A stretch of 64,000 nucleotides of DNA from an uncultured Candidatus Saccharibacteria bacterium. Lineage in GTDB: Bacteria; Patescibacteriota; Minisyncoccia; Phycocordibacterales; UBA12088. The stretch covers positions 238,807 to 302,806 of the forward strand of contig CAYPKR010000001.1 of NCBI GenBank assembly GCA_964411375.1, in the 5' to 3' direction. How positions within the stretch are numbered: the first letter of the stretch is position 1; the number at the start of each line of letters is the position of its first letter. The position numbers and the translations under genes were made by a program. The notes beneath the pieces were generated by a model. It saw only the letters and a list, made by a program, of their open reading frames with translations, ran no database searches and was not told the DNA's origin. Shown here piece by piece: positions 2,036-4,892 of the stretch.

Positions 2036-2131
2036 CGTACTTCCTCACTTTTGCAAGGGTTACAGTCTGCTATGACGCTACCAGAACTACAGATTGCGTC
2101 AATTAAATCAATTTTTGAGCCACCTCGCAGG

Positions 2132-2255
2132 TCGGTCACTAGTAAATTTCCTATAGGACATTTCTGTCGACCCCGCCTCAGCAAAAGTCTCCCAGACTTT
2201 TTCTTCCGGCCTTCGATCCTGTCTTCGGCGGCACACTTTGTCACTATGTTCCTCG
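2132..2255. repeat. tRNA-3'-flank element copy A, bounded by 16-bp direct repeats tgagccacctcgcagg (2116-2131 and 2256-2271); the second repeat is the 3' end of tRNA-Thr
   Basis: Exact 16-mer direct repeat; internal motifs ggtcact, aaatttcc, gaccccgcctca, and hairpin aaaagtct-ccc-agactttt followed by a T-tract. Confidence 0.6.
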
Positions 2256-2257
2256 TG

Positions 2258-2330
2258 AGCCACCTCGCAGGATCGAACTGCGGACCTTCTCGTTACGAGT
2301 GAGATGCTCTACCAACTGAGCTAAGGTGGC
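2258..2330 (-). tRNA. tRNA-Thr (anticodon CGT), CCA not encoded
   Basis: Cloverleaf reconstructed by hand: acceptor GCCACCT/AGGTGGC, D-arm GCTC..GAGC, anticodon loop CTCGTAA, T-loop TTCGATC; one A-C mismatch at 31:39. Confidence 0.75.
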
Positions 2331-2429
2331 GATAGGTGTCAGACCCTCCCCGTAACCTTCCCGTAGGGGTTCATGGTTTAGGTCTGACAAAATGTAGTGT
2401 AACAAAAAATTAACGCAGTAATCTGCGGG

Positions 2430-2502
2430 AGCCGATGGTCGGGATTGAACCGACGACCTACGCCTTACCATGGCGTTGCTCTACCAGCTGAGCTACATCG
2501 GC
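2430..2502 (-). tRNA. tRNA-Thr (anticodon GGT), CCA not encoded
   Basis: Acceptor GCCGATG/CATCGGC, anticodon loop ATGGTAA, T-loop TTCAATC. Confidence 0.8.
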
Positions 2503-2575
2503 ATACTGGCAAGTGAGTGGATAATAGCGGATTTTAGAGAAAAAGCCAAAAACAGGAGTATACTATAGACACACT

Positions 2576-2950
2576 ATGCACGAAGCGTTTCGAAGAATTG
2601 CCCATGTGGCGAGTCGTTGGATGGGTTCTCCGTGGGCATTCACGTTCGCTGTTTTTGGCGTTGTTATCTGGGCAGGAAGCGGATGGTTCTATCGCTTTTC
2701 AAACACGTGGCAACTTGTTATCAATACGGGGACAACCATTCTGACTTTCCTTATGGTCTTTCTCATTCAAAATACGCAGAACCGCGACGGACAAGCAACA
2801 CAACTAAAACTCGATGAACTTATAAAGGCGATCGGTAAAGCACGAAATGACTTTATTGAAATCGAAGAAGAGCCGGACGAAAAATTGAATCGCCTTGAAC
2901 ACGAATTTCAGGGGATTAGAGAAAAAATCGATCGTACTGAAAAGCACTAA
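2576..2950 (+). CDS. Low-affinity iron permease family small membrane protein (Fet4-like, DUF1452)
   Basis: 124 aa; strongly conserved SNTWQLVINTGTTILTFLMVFLIQNTQNRD block typical of this family. Confidence 0.6.
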   Translation: MHEAFRRIAHVASRWMGSPWAFTFAVFGVVIWAGSGWFYRFSNTWQLVINTGTTILTFLMVFLIQNTQNRDGQATQLKLDELIKAIGKARNDFIEIEEEPDEKLNRLEHEFQGIREKIDRTEKH

Positions 2951-3975
2951 TCATCCACACTACTTGGACTTAGGAGCCCCTGATCTACGGCATTCCACGC
3001 CGTTTTTGAAATCGCACTAATCGCCGATTCCATTTTTGAATAATCTGATCCTTCCGTCATCACGCAGATCGAATATGGGTGGCGAGGATAATACACGATG
3101 CCGCAATCATGCAGTTGGCGTTTTACTACATTTCCGCCCGCATCTTTTATAGTACGTTCGGCATATTTATGTGCGACCAAGGTGCCATTTGGCACTCCGG
3201 CAACAATGCCGTTTTGGAATGATGTTTTTGAAAGGAAGGTAAGTGCCGTTTGCGAACGTACTCTGCCTAGGAATGAACTATTGTAGAGAATGCGGAAAAA
3301 TCGTGAATATATTTTAGCAGAAGCAATTTCGCCATTCGCATCGCTTGGAGGCGGAACGCCAAAATCTGAGTACACTTTACCGAGTGTGCTTGTAGAAAGA
3401 TGATTATTTAAGAGATCGTACGCGTTATTGTCAGACTCTCCGATCATCGATTGTAATAATTCTTCCACGCTGTGGGCGCCAGGACGAAGTGGTTTGGTTG
3501 GAGGGATGTCTTGAGTTTTAGTTTGATCATTTTCTCCCGTATAGGTAAACGTAGTTGTCATCAAATTGGCATCACTTCGTCCATCGTACAAATAGCCAAT
3601 CAATACCGGGATCTTTATCAGGCTTGCCGGCATGTACATATCATTTTCATTTACGCCGGTCCAATGTCCGAGATCGAGATCTCTAAAGTATACCGATACA
3701 CGGGTAACTTCTCCCGATCTTTTTTCGTTCGAAATAGTCTCAGCAAGTGTATTTTTGAGTGATGTAAATTGTGTATATGGAACTTCTTCGTCTATGTCGC
3801 AAGAGAGAAGGGGATTGATTAGGGCGTAACCACCTTCACGAGTAACCAGATCGTCCGGTGAAAACACAGCATTTTCTGGAATCAGTTTTCCAACTCCGAC
3901 GCCGATACCAAATAGCAAAATACCTCCAACGAAAAGTGTAGAGCGCGGATACTTTGTATAGGTATCTCGAAGCAT
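2947..3975 (-). CDS. Serine hydrolase of the class A beta-lactamase / PBP-like family with N-terminal membrane anchor
   Basis: 342 aa; SxxK (ASLIK) and SDN (GESDNN) motifs; N-terminal TM segment. Confidence 0.6.
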   Translation of the reverse strand: MLRDTYTKYPRSTLFVGGILLFGIGVGVGKLIPENAVFSPDDLVTREGGYALINPLLSCDIDEEVPYTQFTSLKNTLAETISNEKRSGEVTRVSVYFRDLDLGHWTGVNENDMYMPASLIKIPVLIGYLYDGRSDANLMTTTFTYTGENDQTKTQDIPPTKPLRPGAHSVEELLQSMIGESDNNAYDLLNNHLSTSTLGKVYSDFGVPPPSDANGEIASAKIYSRFFRILYNSSFLGRVRSQTALTFLSKTSFQNGIVAGVPNGTLVAHKYAERTIKDAGGNVVKRQLHDCGIVYYPRHPYSICVMTEGSDYSKMESAISAISKTAWNAVDQGLLSPSSVDD

Positions 3976-4039
3976 AGGGAAGCTTCAAGATATTGTACCA
4001 AAAATTGATGGGGATTATTTCAGAAAATGAAATGGAGAC

Positions 4040-4253
4040 AGGCTTGGTCACAACTCAACATTGCAGAGCAACAATTTCCACGAGAGACGGGAATCTTTCT
4101 CCCTACGGGAGCGGTATAGGTTTCGTATCGTGCTCGGCTACGCCTCCGCGCGATATACTCAACCTTTTCAAGTCCCTTTCGGAGCTATCGCTCCGTACTC
4201 TCGCTCGTAACGCAAATTGGCAATTCTTTCGAATTGCCAATTTGCTAACTGCG
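4040..4253. repeat. tRNA-3'-flank element copy D; 12-bp direct repeat cgagagacggga at 4081-4092 and 4256-4267 (the latter inside tRNA-Asp); contains a perfect 15-bp-stem palindrome at 4213-4246
   Basis: Motifs ggtcaca (4047), aatttcc, gggaatct and cgcctccgcg shared with copies A, B and C; exact 12-mer direct repeat of the tRNA 3' end. Confidence 0.5.
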
Positions 4254-4325
4254 CGAGAGACGGGACTTGAACCCGCAACCTCTGCCGTGACAGGGCAGCG
4301 CTCTAACCAGTTGAGCTACTCCCGC
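4254..4325 (-). tRNA. tRNA-Asp (anticodon GTC), CCA not encoded
   Basis: Acceptor GCGGGAG/CTCTCGC with G-U at 4:69; anticodon loop CTGTCAC; T-loop TTCAAGT. Confidence 0.8.
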
Positions 4326-4375
4326 AATATAGTTGCGACCGCATCAGACCGTTCGCAAGTACCCACAAACTTACC

Positions 4376-4657
4376 TTAGCTTCGCCGAAACTTCAACTGT
4401 TTGCGAGTTTTCAGTTTGGCATCACCCCAGCGGTAATACCCGAGTCCAGCAAAGTATATATTGATGATATTGGCGATCACGAATGCGTATTGGTGGGCAA
4501 TATAGGAGACGATTAGTCCGGCACTAAAGCCGATTATAGAAATAGCAAATCCAATACGTCGTTTTGACGTCAACAAATACATACCGAAAAAGCCGGAACC
4601 CATCCCGAGCCAGTCGAGACCGTAGTACGTGCCAAAAAGAGCGTGGAGGTCGAACAT
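4376..4657 (-). CDS. Hypothetical small membrane protein (3 predicted TM helices)
   Basis: 93 aa hydrophobic ORF; candidate TTGTGA-N17-TCTAAT promoter upstream. Confidence 0.4.
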   Translation of the reverse strand: MFDLHALFGTYYGLDWLGMGSGFFGMYLLTSKRRIGFAISIIGFSAGLIVSYIAHQYAFVIANIINIYFAGLGYYRWGDAKLKTRKQLKFRRS

Positions 4658-4716
4658 TAGGAATAAGTATAGCGTGAGGAGGAATCGGTCGGAAATAATT
4701 TATTAGAAAAAATGCG

Positions 4717-4892
4717 AGGATCGGTCACAAGTAAATTTCCTGACGCAAAGGGAATCTCGCCTTACAGGCGCAGTACACCTTGCGGATTTTTTCTTCGCTC
4801 TCTCGAGCTTGAAAAAGTCTCACAAGGTCTTCGATTCCTGCACAGGAAGTCCTCCGGACTTCCTTCGTCGACAAAATTGCTTCGCAATTTGT
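4717..4892. repeat. tRNA-3'-flank element copy B (downstream of tRNA-Met)
   Basis: Shares ggtcacaagtaaatttcct, gggaatct, and hairpins aaaagtctc.. and ggaagtcc-tcc-ggacttcc with copies A, C and D. Confidence 0.45.

Follow-up and report, generated by a model that had tools for sequence, protein, structure and literature searches.

Cassettes with a conserved three-way-junction core and arms copied from the adjacent RNA gene follow tRNA and tmRNA genes in Paceibacteria

We analysed a 64-kb stretch of DNA (hereafter the window) from a genome of Paceibacteria/Parcubacteria, members of the Candidate Phyla Radiation (CPR). Four of the six transfer RNA (tRNA) and transfer-messenger RNA (tmRNA) genes of the window were followed by short cassettes, designated A, B, C, and D. 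Each carried the 3' end of its own neighbour in two copies, an inverted one beside the gene and a direct one distal to it, with a folded core between the two. Such cassettes of approximately 100–280 nucleotides (nt) after tRNA and tmRNA genes of Paceibacteria form a large and apparently undescribed family. We propose, with about as much belief as doubt, that the cassette is a co-transcribed trailer RNA, in which a three-way-junction core would be held between arms mimicking the end of the adjacent tRNA; its transcription and function are deduced here from the sequences.

In the first type of core (type-1), read in the orientation of the tRNA, the order of parts is as follows: the tRNA, a trailer hairpin, tRNA positions 73 to 54 as an antisense copy, GAAR, helix P2, helix P3, and the tRNA 3' end as a sense copy. 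The antisense copy is often split by a hairpin inserted between its anti-acceptor and anti-T parts. Helix P1 pairs the antisense copy of positions 63–57 with the sense copy of positions 57–63 of the same tRNA. P2 is composed of GCC-GGA, a variable hairpin, and GA-GGC, followed by a G. P3 is composed of GGGUCG, a variable distal hairpin, and UGAC, after which the sense copy starts from C56; its helix is GGUCG/UGAC-C56 with a near-invariant G.U pair. The same pair was invariant in the GGUCG/UGACC helix in the consensus of a six-sequence alignment. Approximately 25 near-invariant nucleotides cluster round the three-way junction, and the invariant G.U is located five pairs from it.

The fold was evaluated on 123 sequences among the matches listed from metagenome contigs, without a correction for phylogeny in the covariation statistics. 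Helix cells were paired in 90.8% of cases vs. 69.7% in shuffled sequences and 29–44% when the partners were slid, and changes on both sides of a pair were found in 548 cells vs. 153 in the shuffles. The two base combinations that distinguish the strands were unequally represented, with 209 G.U against 22 A.C in the helices (93 against 22 without the invariant pair), and one G.U was retained in 116 of 120 sequences among the matches listed. Because of this asymmetry between G.U and A.C, the folded molecule is assigned to the tRNA-sense strand, and the elements of the window are thus placed on the strand of the tRNA and not on the plus strand. The predicted folding energies pointed in the same direction: for A and C, they were −42.3 and −48.1 kcal/mol on the minus strand vs. 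−34.0 and −36.3 kcal/mol on the plus strand, a gap of 8–12 kcal/mol. On visual comparison with the consensus, the junction was judged to be neither a hammerhead nor a K-turn. Separately, two hairpin loops recurred across the family, for example in L073, L085, L088, L093, L035, and L186 (L numbers designate sequence loci throughout): CAGCAG, in P2b (the variable hairpin of P2) or in P3, and ACUGC, in the hairpin inserted into the antisense arm. They are mutually complementary (GCAG/CUGC) and may form a kissing-loop contact.

The relationship between the arms and the adjacent gene was measured by the best match of the last 32 nt of each tRNA to its own flank, for 194 tRNAs from 84 Paceibacteria loci and the window. 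Seventeen of the 194 3' flanks had an inverted copy scoring at least 12, a score seen neither in 5' flanks nor in the controls with other tRNAs. Sense copies scoring at least 12 were found in 72% of cassettes against their own tRNA and in 1% against other tRNAs; for antisense copies scoring at least 9, the values were 74% and 12%, respectively. The sense copy began exactly at C56, after GTGAC, in 58 of 69 cassettes (84%), and was 71–80% identical to the tRNA out to position 72. Positions 57–63 were paired in P1 in 79–87% of cassettes. The units were 104–280 nt in size, with a median of 161 nt.

The distal arm often extends beyond what the gene encodes. Of 49 cassettes with a tRNA gene lacking CCA, 10 had CCA after the sense copy (p = 4e-9), as had seven of the eight whose gene encodes it; in those 10, the antisense copy corresponds to the trailer of the gene itself. 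The presence of CCA on the sense copy and its absence from the gene indicate that the distal arm takes after the mature tRNA end and not after the gene alone.

To find further copies, covariance model R1 was built from the six-sequence alignment and run at E<1e-3 over the window and 83 loci not chosen for the motif. The search, which the earlier note on this stretch had suggested as a check, gave 13 matches, all of them 16–132 nt 3' of a tRNA or tmRNA gene and on the same strand. A metagenome set was obtained by scanning for an exact pattern, which under-samples divergent members, and comprised at least 120 stretches; at least 123 copies matched the family model in these contigs, with groundwater and sediment among the sources. 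Among the matches listed, 97 of 122 had a same-strand tRNA or tmRNA gene at most 250 nt upstream (median 63 nt), and approximately 35 anticodons were covered. The other matches listed were mostly cut by contig ends; some were later units of tandem arrays, and one was a chance match in a coding region. In L087 (approximately 2440–2560), the cassette comes after the 3' exon of a tRNA (T arm, acceptor, CCA) missed by ARAGORN, and the structured sequence upstream is repeated after the cassette; this tRNA is probably an intron-containing one of the kind reported for Patescibacteria. In L126, L129, and L181, cassettes are located behind the 3' end of a stable RNA (CCCUGUAGGGUCACA) not called as tRNA by ARAGORN, and the sense copy ends with ..CCCTGTAGGGTCACA.

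The RNA genes of the window were called by ARAGORN and Rfam; of the source genome, the 64 kb were read. They are as follows:
2257–2330, minus strand: tRNA-Thr (CGT), ARAGORN and Rfam tRNA model (62.8 bits), with cassette A 3' of the gene
2428–2502, minus strand: tRNA-Thr-GGT, ARAGORN/Rfam
4251–4325, minus strand: tRNA-Asp (GTC), ARAGORN/Rfam, with cassette D 3' of the gene
4891–4965, minus strand: tRNA-Met (CAT), ARAGORN/Rfam, with cassette B 3' of the gene
10966–11037, plus strand: tRNA-Gln, ARAGORN/Rfam
44315–44705, minus strand: tmRNA, ARAGORN and Rfam tmRNA model (104 bits), with cassette C 3' of the gene

The earlier note had described A–D as one family of plus-strand motifs that accompanies every minus-strand tRNA or tmRNA gene. 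The family is real, and all four stretches are indeed located between a minus-strand RNA gene and the next gene on that strand (PrkA kinase, a beta-lactamase-family protein, and two small membrane proteins), with the GGTCACA end 66–99 base pairs (bp) from the start of this gene (65–100 bp according to the note). Its orientation was mistaken and its extent overstated: both flank scoring and the covariance model found no cassette at the flank of tRNA-Thr-GGT (2331–2427), nor at tRNA-Gln on the plus strand. At 2331–2427, which separates tRNA-Thr-GGT from tRNA-Thr-CGT, there is another long hairpin (GTCAGACC...GGTCTGAC) and a terminator-like site, without a cassette.

Within the window, only A (2128–2222, 76 bits) and C (44159–44253, 94 bits) matched the family model. 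These two are clear homologs with 69% identity, though they stand behind a tRNA and a tmRNA, respectively; they have in common the 31-nt core CCCCGCCTCANNAAAAGTCYCCCRGACTTTT (two matches vs. 0.00 expected) and a hairpin with a compensatory change from U-A to C-G. Cassette A spans positions 2116–2256 and consists of the following parts:
2233–2256, minus strand: trailer between tRNA-Thr and cassette A, the first 10 nt of which, CACGAGGAAC (2247–2256), are the ancestral flank common to locus L002
2212–2232, minus strand: antisense copy of the tRNA 3' end, with CAGGATCGAA (2212–2221) complementary to T54–G63
2226–2232, minus strand: degenerate anti-acceptor (GCCGCC)
2128–2222, minus strand: type-1 three-way-junction core, model R1, 76 bits, E 7e-21
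Core parts: GAAG junction at 2211–2214; P2a GCC/GGC with GGA/GA loop; P2b hairpin at 2180–2204
2165–2175 and 2134–2142, minus strand: 5' and 3' strands of P3
2116–2134, minus strand: sense copy of tRNA-Thr positions 56–73 followed by CA, with one base deleted and GTGAC before the copy

The direct repeat of A was exact over 16 of 16 positions (2116–2131 = 2256–2271), its inverted repeat (2205–2221/2268–2284) was 82% complementary over 17 nt, and its minus-strand fold of −42.3 kcal/mol had a z score of −2.9. Cassette C spans positions 44140–44322:
44265–44322, minus strand: perfect 27-bp inverted repeat, arms 44265–44291 and 44296–44322, 100% complementary
44159–44253, minus strand: type-1 core, with anti-T GGTGGTATTGAA, GAAAGCCGGA, P2b hairpin (44211–44235), GAGGCGGGGTCG, and P3
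44146–44166, minus strand: decayed sense copy of the tmRNA 3' end, CAAACTCCCTCAAACCTCTCA vs. CAATCCCCCCATCTCCA in the gene

The 27-bp repeat of C forms a terminator-like hairpin, the stem of which covers the final 8 nt of the tmRNA gene and the outer arm of which is the anti-acceptor copy. The core of C scored 93.8 bits with R1 (E 2e-26) and folded with −48.1 kcal/mol on the minus strand. Its sense copy is placed after GTGAC, as elsewhere in the family.

B and D proved to be composites, sharing with A and C only the last 30–40 nt of the element and the general architecture; a four-way alignment of A–D had just 50% identity per column. In each of them, a complete cassette of another core type is located beside the tRNA and is followed by a distal type-1 remnant, corresponding to the last 30–40 nt of the element, and by decayed sense copies. 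The parts of B and of the remnants behind it are as follows:
4830–4890, minus strand: left arm, with trailer hairpin at 4874–4890, anti-acceptor at 4866–4873, and anti-T arm at 4830–4841
4842–4865: inserted hairpin, AGTCCTCCGGACT on the plus strand
4741–4829, minus strand: sibling-type core, helix ACCUUGUG/CGCAAGGU and hairpin CGCCUGUAAGGCG
4741–4756, minus strand: own sense copy GATTCCC.., which terminates the B core
4675–4740, minus strand: distal remnants, with type-1 3' end GGAAAUUUACUUGUGACC (4723–4740) and a decayed sense copy (4708–4722)
4675–4692, minus strand: further sense copy, CCGAC followed by CGATTCCTCC

Inverted repeats of B connected 4830–4839 with 4902–4911 (10/10) and 4866–4876 with 4889–4899, and its direct repeat was 10/10 (4678–4687 = 4900–4909). 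Cassette D and its remnant have the following parts:
4167–4250, minus strand: left arm, with a 15-bp trailer hairpin at 4213–4245 and anti-acceptor at 4198–4207
4177–4197 and 4167–4176, minus strand: inserted hairpin and anti-T arm
4081–4166, minus strand: core of a different type, starting with AAGGUUG as in one unit of L116
4081–4092, minus strand: sense copy of tRNA-Asp, TCCCGTCTCTCG, which terminates the D core
4026–4080, minus strand: distal remnant, type-1 3' end GGAAAUUG...UUGUGACC (4046–4080), which aligned with A, B, and C at their 3' ends
4026–4047, minus strand: decayed second sense copy

Its inverted repeats were 4198–4226/4231–4259 and 4167–4176/4262–4271 (10/10), and its direct repeat was 12/12 (4081–4092 = 4254–4265).

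The GGTCACA..AAATTTCC motif of the earlier note is the reverse complement of the type-1 3' end, and its presence in all four elements reflects, in B and D, the distal type-1 remnant. On the minus strand, ..TGTGACC is common to all four; the 31-nt core is confined to A and C. The YYGGTCACA start taken alone was not above chance (three matches vs. 1.47 expected), and A reads GGTCACT. Hairpin AGTCYYCCRGACT occurred within the 64 kb only in A, B, and C (three matches vs. 0.22 expected) and was absent from D. GGTCACANNTAAWTTTSC was likewise detected in A, B, and C, with four matches at no more than two mismatches, one of them spurious, vs. 0.15 expected. CGCCTCCGCG of D and the GGGAATCT blocks belong to a different module from that in A and C; the GGGAATCT blocks correspond, in reverse complement, to a sense copy of each tRNA's own T arm. 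In addition, one hairpin (minus strand AGUCCGGGGGACU) was observed at 2186–2198, 4848–4860, and 44217–44229 of the window and at 4994–5006 and 7807–7819 of L002. Its position varies among the cassettes of this clade: A and C have it for P2b, and B for the inserted hairpin. The sequence AAAGUCCGGG presumably resembles the conserved CR-I of RNase P RNA.

Comparison with relatives demonstrated both persistence and turnover of the cassettes. The tRNA-Asp and tmRNA trailers with their antisense copies, as well as cassette B, were orthologous in relatives with 74–80% protein identity, and the orthologous cassettes of the relatives carried compensatory changes. The trailer and antisense copy of D correspond to L002 7500–7565 (tRNA-Asp), and B corresponds to L002 7690–7853 (tRNA-Met flank), the RF2 identity with L002 being 74%. 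Between the two B orthologs, eight pairs had changed on both sides; among these was a P1 pair that tracks the substitution at position 59 in the T-loop of tRNA-Met. In the closest relative by RF2 identity (91%), the contig ends inside tRNA-Met. At tRNA-Asp of L002 and tmRNA of L207, the trailer hairpin and the antisense copy were kept and the core was absent.

No between-genome pair in the unselected set was more than 59% identical. The most alike metagenome cores among the matches listed belonged to different tRNAs (Glu/Arg 0.90, Trp/Arg 0.86). Most pairs within a contig were as divergent as pairs between contigs, for which reason a recent within-genome burst was rejected as the general case. 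Strict vertical descent of the core with its own tRNA was also rejected, since same-anticodon pairs were scarcely more similar than other pairs (0.466 vs. 0.425). Tandem units exist, some of which repeat the tRNA trailer too, and arrays may mix core types, as in L116.

At a single locus, that of tRNA-Thr-CGT, the flank common to L002 follows the functional end of the tRNA and not the distal copy; in L002, the same flank as CACGAGGAAC is located at 4932–4941, after the 3' half of a window-type tRNA-Thr. The ancestral state of the proximal trailer in A argues against a simple integrase-type insertion bringing its own 3' end. Degenerate inverted or tandem duplicates of tRNA were rejected as a source of the elements, since a constant RGCCGGA and not the T-stem comes after the anti-T-loop, and the inserted hairpins had no resemblance to the anticodon or D arms of tRNA.

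Other rearrangements at tRNA genes were also observed. Perfect 44–45-nt copies of tRNA 3' halves were located 23–64 nt downstream of the tRNA in L002 (4942–4985), L074 (4975–5019), and L065 (11641–11684). They begin in the anticodon stem or loop and represent a type distinct from the C56 junction of the cassettes; the L002 copy is the half of a window-type tRNA-Thr-CGT beside a tRNA-Thr-CGT with different acceptor and T arm. In L205 (3403–3900), the tmRNA is followed by a terminator, an islet with an open reading frame (ORF) of approximately 75 aa containing CATCTCCACA (the tmRNA 3' end), and a truncated type-1 remnant (3818–3899); judging by this order, the islet is read as new DNA inserted between the tmRNA and an older cassette. 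In L141 (716–801), a pseudo-tRNA-Lys (positions 1–53, identical to the intact downstream gene) is fused to a type-1-like core at the T-loop point.

If the cassette is a co-transcribed trailer RNA, it would be transcribed from the tRNA or tmRNA strand as an extension of the 3' trailer by read-through. A terminator-like hairpin with a T-run stood between the tRNA and the cassette in only 20 of 85 cassettes, which makes read-through from the tRNA promoter plausible. Beyond P1, the 3' arm copies the 3' strands of the T-stem and acceptor and the discriminator, often with CCA even where the gene has none, and RNase Z, RNase P, and the CCA-adding enzyme could process or stabilise the cassette, as its end resembles that of a mature tRNA. 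The conserved core would be the functional module, protein-binding or catalytic. The tRNA-derived arms could serve as portable homology, by which units could duplicate in tandem or be lost and tRNA loci could exchange cores, with new cassettes arising beside the tRNA and older remnants left distal, as the arrangement of B and D suggests. Of three explanations offered by the earlier note, that of shared tRNA 3'-trailer cassettes is the nearest to these data; the copying of arms from each tRNA had escaped it. In favour of such an RNA stand the covariation and strand bias of the helices, the location at tRNA 3' ends, the match of the arms to the cassette's own tRNA, the CCA, the long persistence of some cassettes under constraint, and the modular turnover of cores.

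Several observations weigh against a co-transcribed trailer RNA. The antisense partner for positions 66–72 was perfect in 11% of cassettes vs. 4% of controls; with acceptor pairing this weak, the 'minihelix' of most copies would be just the T-stem part with a single-stranded tail. In C, the core is intact and the arms have decayed. Cassettes followed approximately 7% of tRNAs in the unselected set, and such a patchy distribution makes an indispensable function unlikely. About a quarter of the cassettes are those behind the terminator-like hairpin mentioned above. Near-identical cores on different tRNAs suit a mobile element as well as gene conversion. The strand of expression is deduced from structure, and a single-stranded DNA form of the same strand would give the same signal. 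Finally, we know of no partner protein or catalytic activity of the cassettes.

The main rival, less probable in our estimate yet a serious possibility, is a miniature non-autonomous mobile DNA element, or its scars, targeting the T-loop of tRNA and tmRNA genes. It would be moved in trans by a recombinase or by template-switching during replication, and the core, folded as single-stranded DNA or RNA, would serve mobility and no function of the host. The sharp U55|C56 junction in 84% of copies, the direct repeat of the tRNA 3' end bounding the element, the tandem units with duplicated trailers, the highly similar cores on different tRNAs, the patchy occurrence at orthologous tRNAs, and the decayed distal copies behind B, C, and D would all be expected of it, as would the ORF islet of L205 and the pseudo-tRNA fusion of L141. 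Against it, no protein family recurred within 3 kb downstream of 122 copies among the matches listed (the upstream side, the rest of the genomes, and the approximately 78 ORFs of the window were outside this search), and the core had no match in viral contigs, phage records, or plasmid records. A T-loop integration with an element-borne 3' end would not leave the ancestral trailer proximal, as it is in A; most copies within a contig are as divergent as those between contigs; the cassettes persist at orthologous loci with compensatory changes; and the CCA after the sense copy cannot derive from the DNA of the adjacent gene. The scars of tRNA-targeting elements envisaged by the earlier note thus agree with the direct repeats, tandem units, and decayed distal copies, but not with the covarying RNA-type structure, the ancestral trailer of A, or the lack of a linked recombinase in the 3 kb downstream of the listed copies.

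Rather improbable, in our view, is a new RNA device acting on the tRNA T-loop, whose junction would be a ribozyme or ribonucleoprotein scaffold at U55|C56 and which would copy itself onto tRNA genes. It would splice positions 1–55 onto the distal CCA-bearing 56–76 or set free tRNA 3' ends as spares or decoys. By this chemistry, or by template-switching at the T-loop, the cassette would be copied onto any tRNA gene as a self-propagating element, with the arms being written by the target.

We also see little likelihood of a self-processing RNA, in which the core would be a small ribozyme acting beside C56, either freeing a 3' tRNA fragment or splicing out the segment from U55 to the second C56 and joining tRNA positions 1–55 to the distal CCA-bearing copy. 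The near-invariant nucleotides at the junction with the invariant G.U, the exact boundary at C56, and CCA on the distal copy where the gene has none are compatible with such an activity. As read from the sequences, pairing of positions 1–55 with the distal copy is compatible with simultaneous pairing of the antisense and proximal copies, and theta ribozymes beside tRNAs offer a precedent (PMC10879173). It is at odds with the absence of any match to known ribozyme families even at E<=10 and with the decay of distal arms in many copies; furthermore, the proximal copy already completes the tRNA, and splicing would be unnecessary.

Equally slight is the probability that the elements are only extended trailer palindromes, in which the antisense copy lengthens the tRNA terminator hairpin and the remainder is neutral debris of duplication. 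The antisense copy is the most persistent part (tRNA-Asp of L002 and tmRNA of L207 have no core), C has its perfect 27-bp palindrome across the tmRNA 3' end, and inverted copies scoring at least 12 are restricted to 3' flanks (17 of 194). Debris would neither preserve approximately 25 invariant nucleotides and the covariation of P2 and P3 in more than 120 divergent contigs nor acquire CCA.

The plus-strand small RNA of approximately 80–100 nt proposed by the earlier note, with a GGTCACA start and an intrinsic terminator and convergent with the tRNA, is very unlikely: although the P2b hairpins of A and C are followed by a T-run on the plus strand and B has a terminator-like site there (4769–4784), the G.U vs. 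A.C counts favour the minus strand, the invariant G.U would become a C.A mismatch, the plus-strand folds are weaker, the supposed terminator is the variable P2b module, opposite-strand terminator-like sites were found in only 15 of 85 units, and no promoter-like site on the plus strand was found within A, B, or D (1950–5050 scanned, with C outside the scan).

Compared with known systems, the family was rated as lying outside the known kinds; integrative elements, integrons, and tRNA-like RNAs were compared from general knowledge. Elements integrating at tRNA genes, like their derivatives without an integrase (cis-mobilisable elements and satellites), produce a direct repeat from the T-loop to the 3' end and accrete in tandem, with older decayed copies located distally. 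The cassettes resemble those at tRNA and tmRNA genes in the direct repeat of the tRNA 3' segment (exact over 16, 12, and 10 nt in A, D, and B, respectively) and in tandem accretion. They differ in their 100–280 bp size without an integrase or cargo gene, in the inverted copy and covarying core, in the association of one core family with approximately 35 tRNAs, and in distal CCA that is sometimes absent from the gene. At the single locus of A, the original flank was not at the distal end, where an integrative island would have it. Integron attC sites are short modular units beside a fixed attachment point, with the newest proximal and the folded structure conserved on one strand. The cassettes share with integron cassettes the modular arrays beside a fixed point, the proximal place of the newest unit, and the conservation of structure over sequence on one strand; they have no integron integrase, attI, core sites (GTTRRRY), or ORFs, and their boundary is the 3' end of their own tRNA.

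The tRNA-like domain of tmRNA and viral tRNA-like structures borrow the recognition of tRNA ends. The cassettes are similar to these RNAs in a 3' end that copies the T-stem, the acceptor strand, the discriminator, and sometimes CCA, and differ in that a three-way junction of approximately 80 nt replaces the T-loop, the acceptor helix is often incomplete, and each mimics its own neighbour. They also fail to fit a transposable element of the miniature inverted-repeat kind (MITE), which has constant terminal inverted repeats and a short fixed target-site duplication at dispersed sites, as the arms vary by locus, the repeat comprises approximately 18 nt or more from C56, and all significant matches are at tRNA or tmRNA 3' ends.

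Over the window, Rfam 15 at the gathering score detected only tRNA and tmRNA, and at E<=10, the cassette regions gave only chance-level matches, mostly to miRNA and leader models on palindromes. Our literature search for tRNA-flanking repeats and RNA motifs in Patescibacteria yielded only anticodon-loop group I introns and theta ribozymes. Theta ribozymes are similar to the ribozyme of hepatitis delta virus (HDV) and are located beside tRNAs of gut phages, where their authors postulated a role in the processing of the tRNA 3' trailer (PMC10879173). As small structured cis RNAs directly beside a tRNA, they are the closest precedent in terms of working (PMC10879173), but the cassettes have chromosomal CPR hosts and tRNA-specific arms, which theta ribozymes lack. 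For the HDV-like class, marked by a nested double pseudoknot and by cleavage at its own 5' end, there was no Rfam match, and the consensus is a plain three-way junction as seen by tools blind to pseudoknots. The group I introns of Patescibacteria tRNAs are inserted in the anticodon loop, have a core of at least approximately 200 nt, and interrupt the gene (PMC13011429). In the cassettes, by comparison, the tRNAs are intact, the element is 3' of the gene, the core is approximately 80–120 nt, and Intron_gpI was not matched.

To our knowledge, there is no described precedent for a conserved RNA core with both arms rewritten to match the T-arm and acceptor end of each neighbouring tRNA, in some cases including a CCA not encoded by the gene. 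CPR genomes are among the smallest known, and this 514-kb genome spends several hundred bases on the cassettes. If they are functional RNAs, they would constitute a layer at tRNA ends, hitherto unknown, in an uncultivated major branch, be it processing, quality control, decoy, or repair; if they are selfish, they would represent a new route by which a protein-less element targets the safest sites of a compact genome. Either way, this is a concrete RNA family, and annotators should be warned against taking the partial tRNA 3' ends of these genomes simply for scars of prophages.

Two features of the RNA genes themselves were also noted. The tmRNA tag peptide AKNTLARAKSVLSPFQMNDFAFAYATA (27 aa) was the same in the window (44315–44705) and in L205 (3012–3402), whose SmpB proteins were 80% identical. 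In the tRNA genes of the window, as in many metagenome loci, N73 is followed by CA and not by an encoded CCA.

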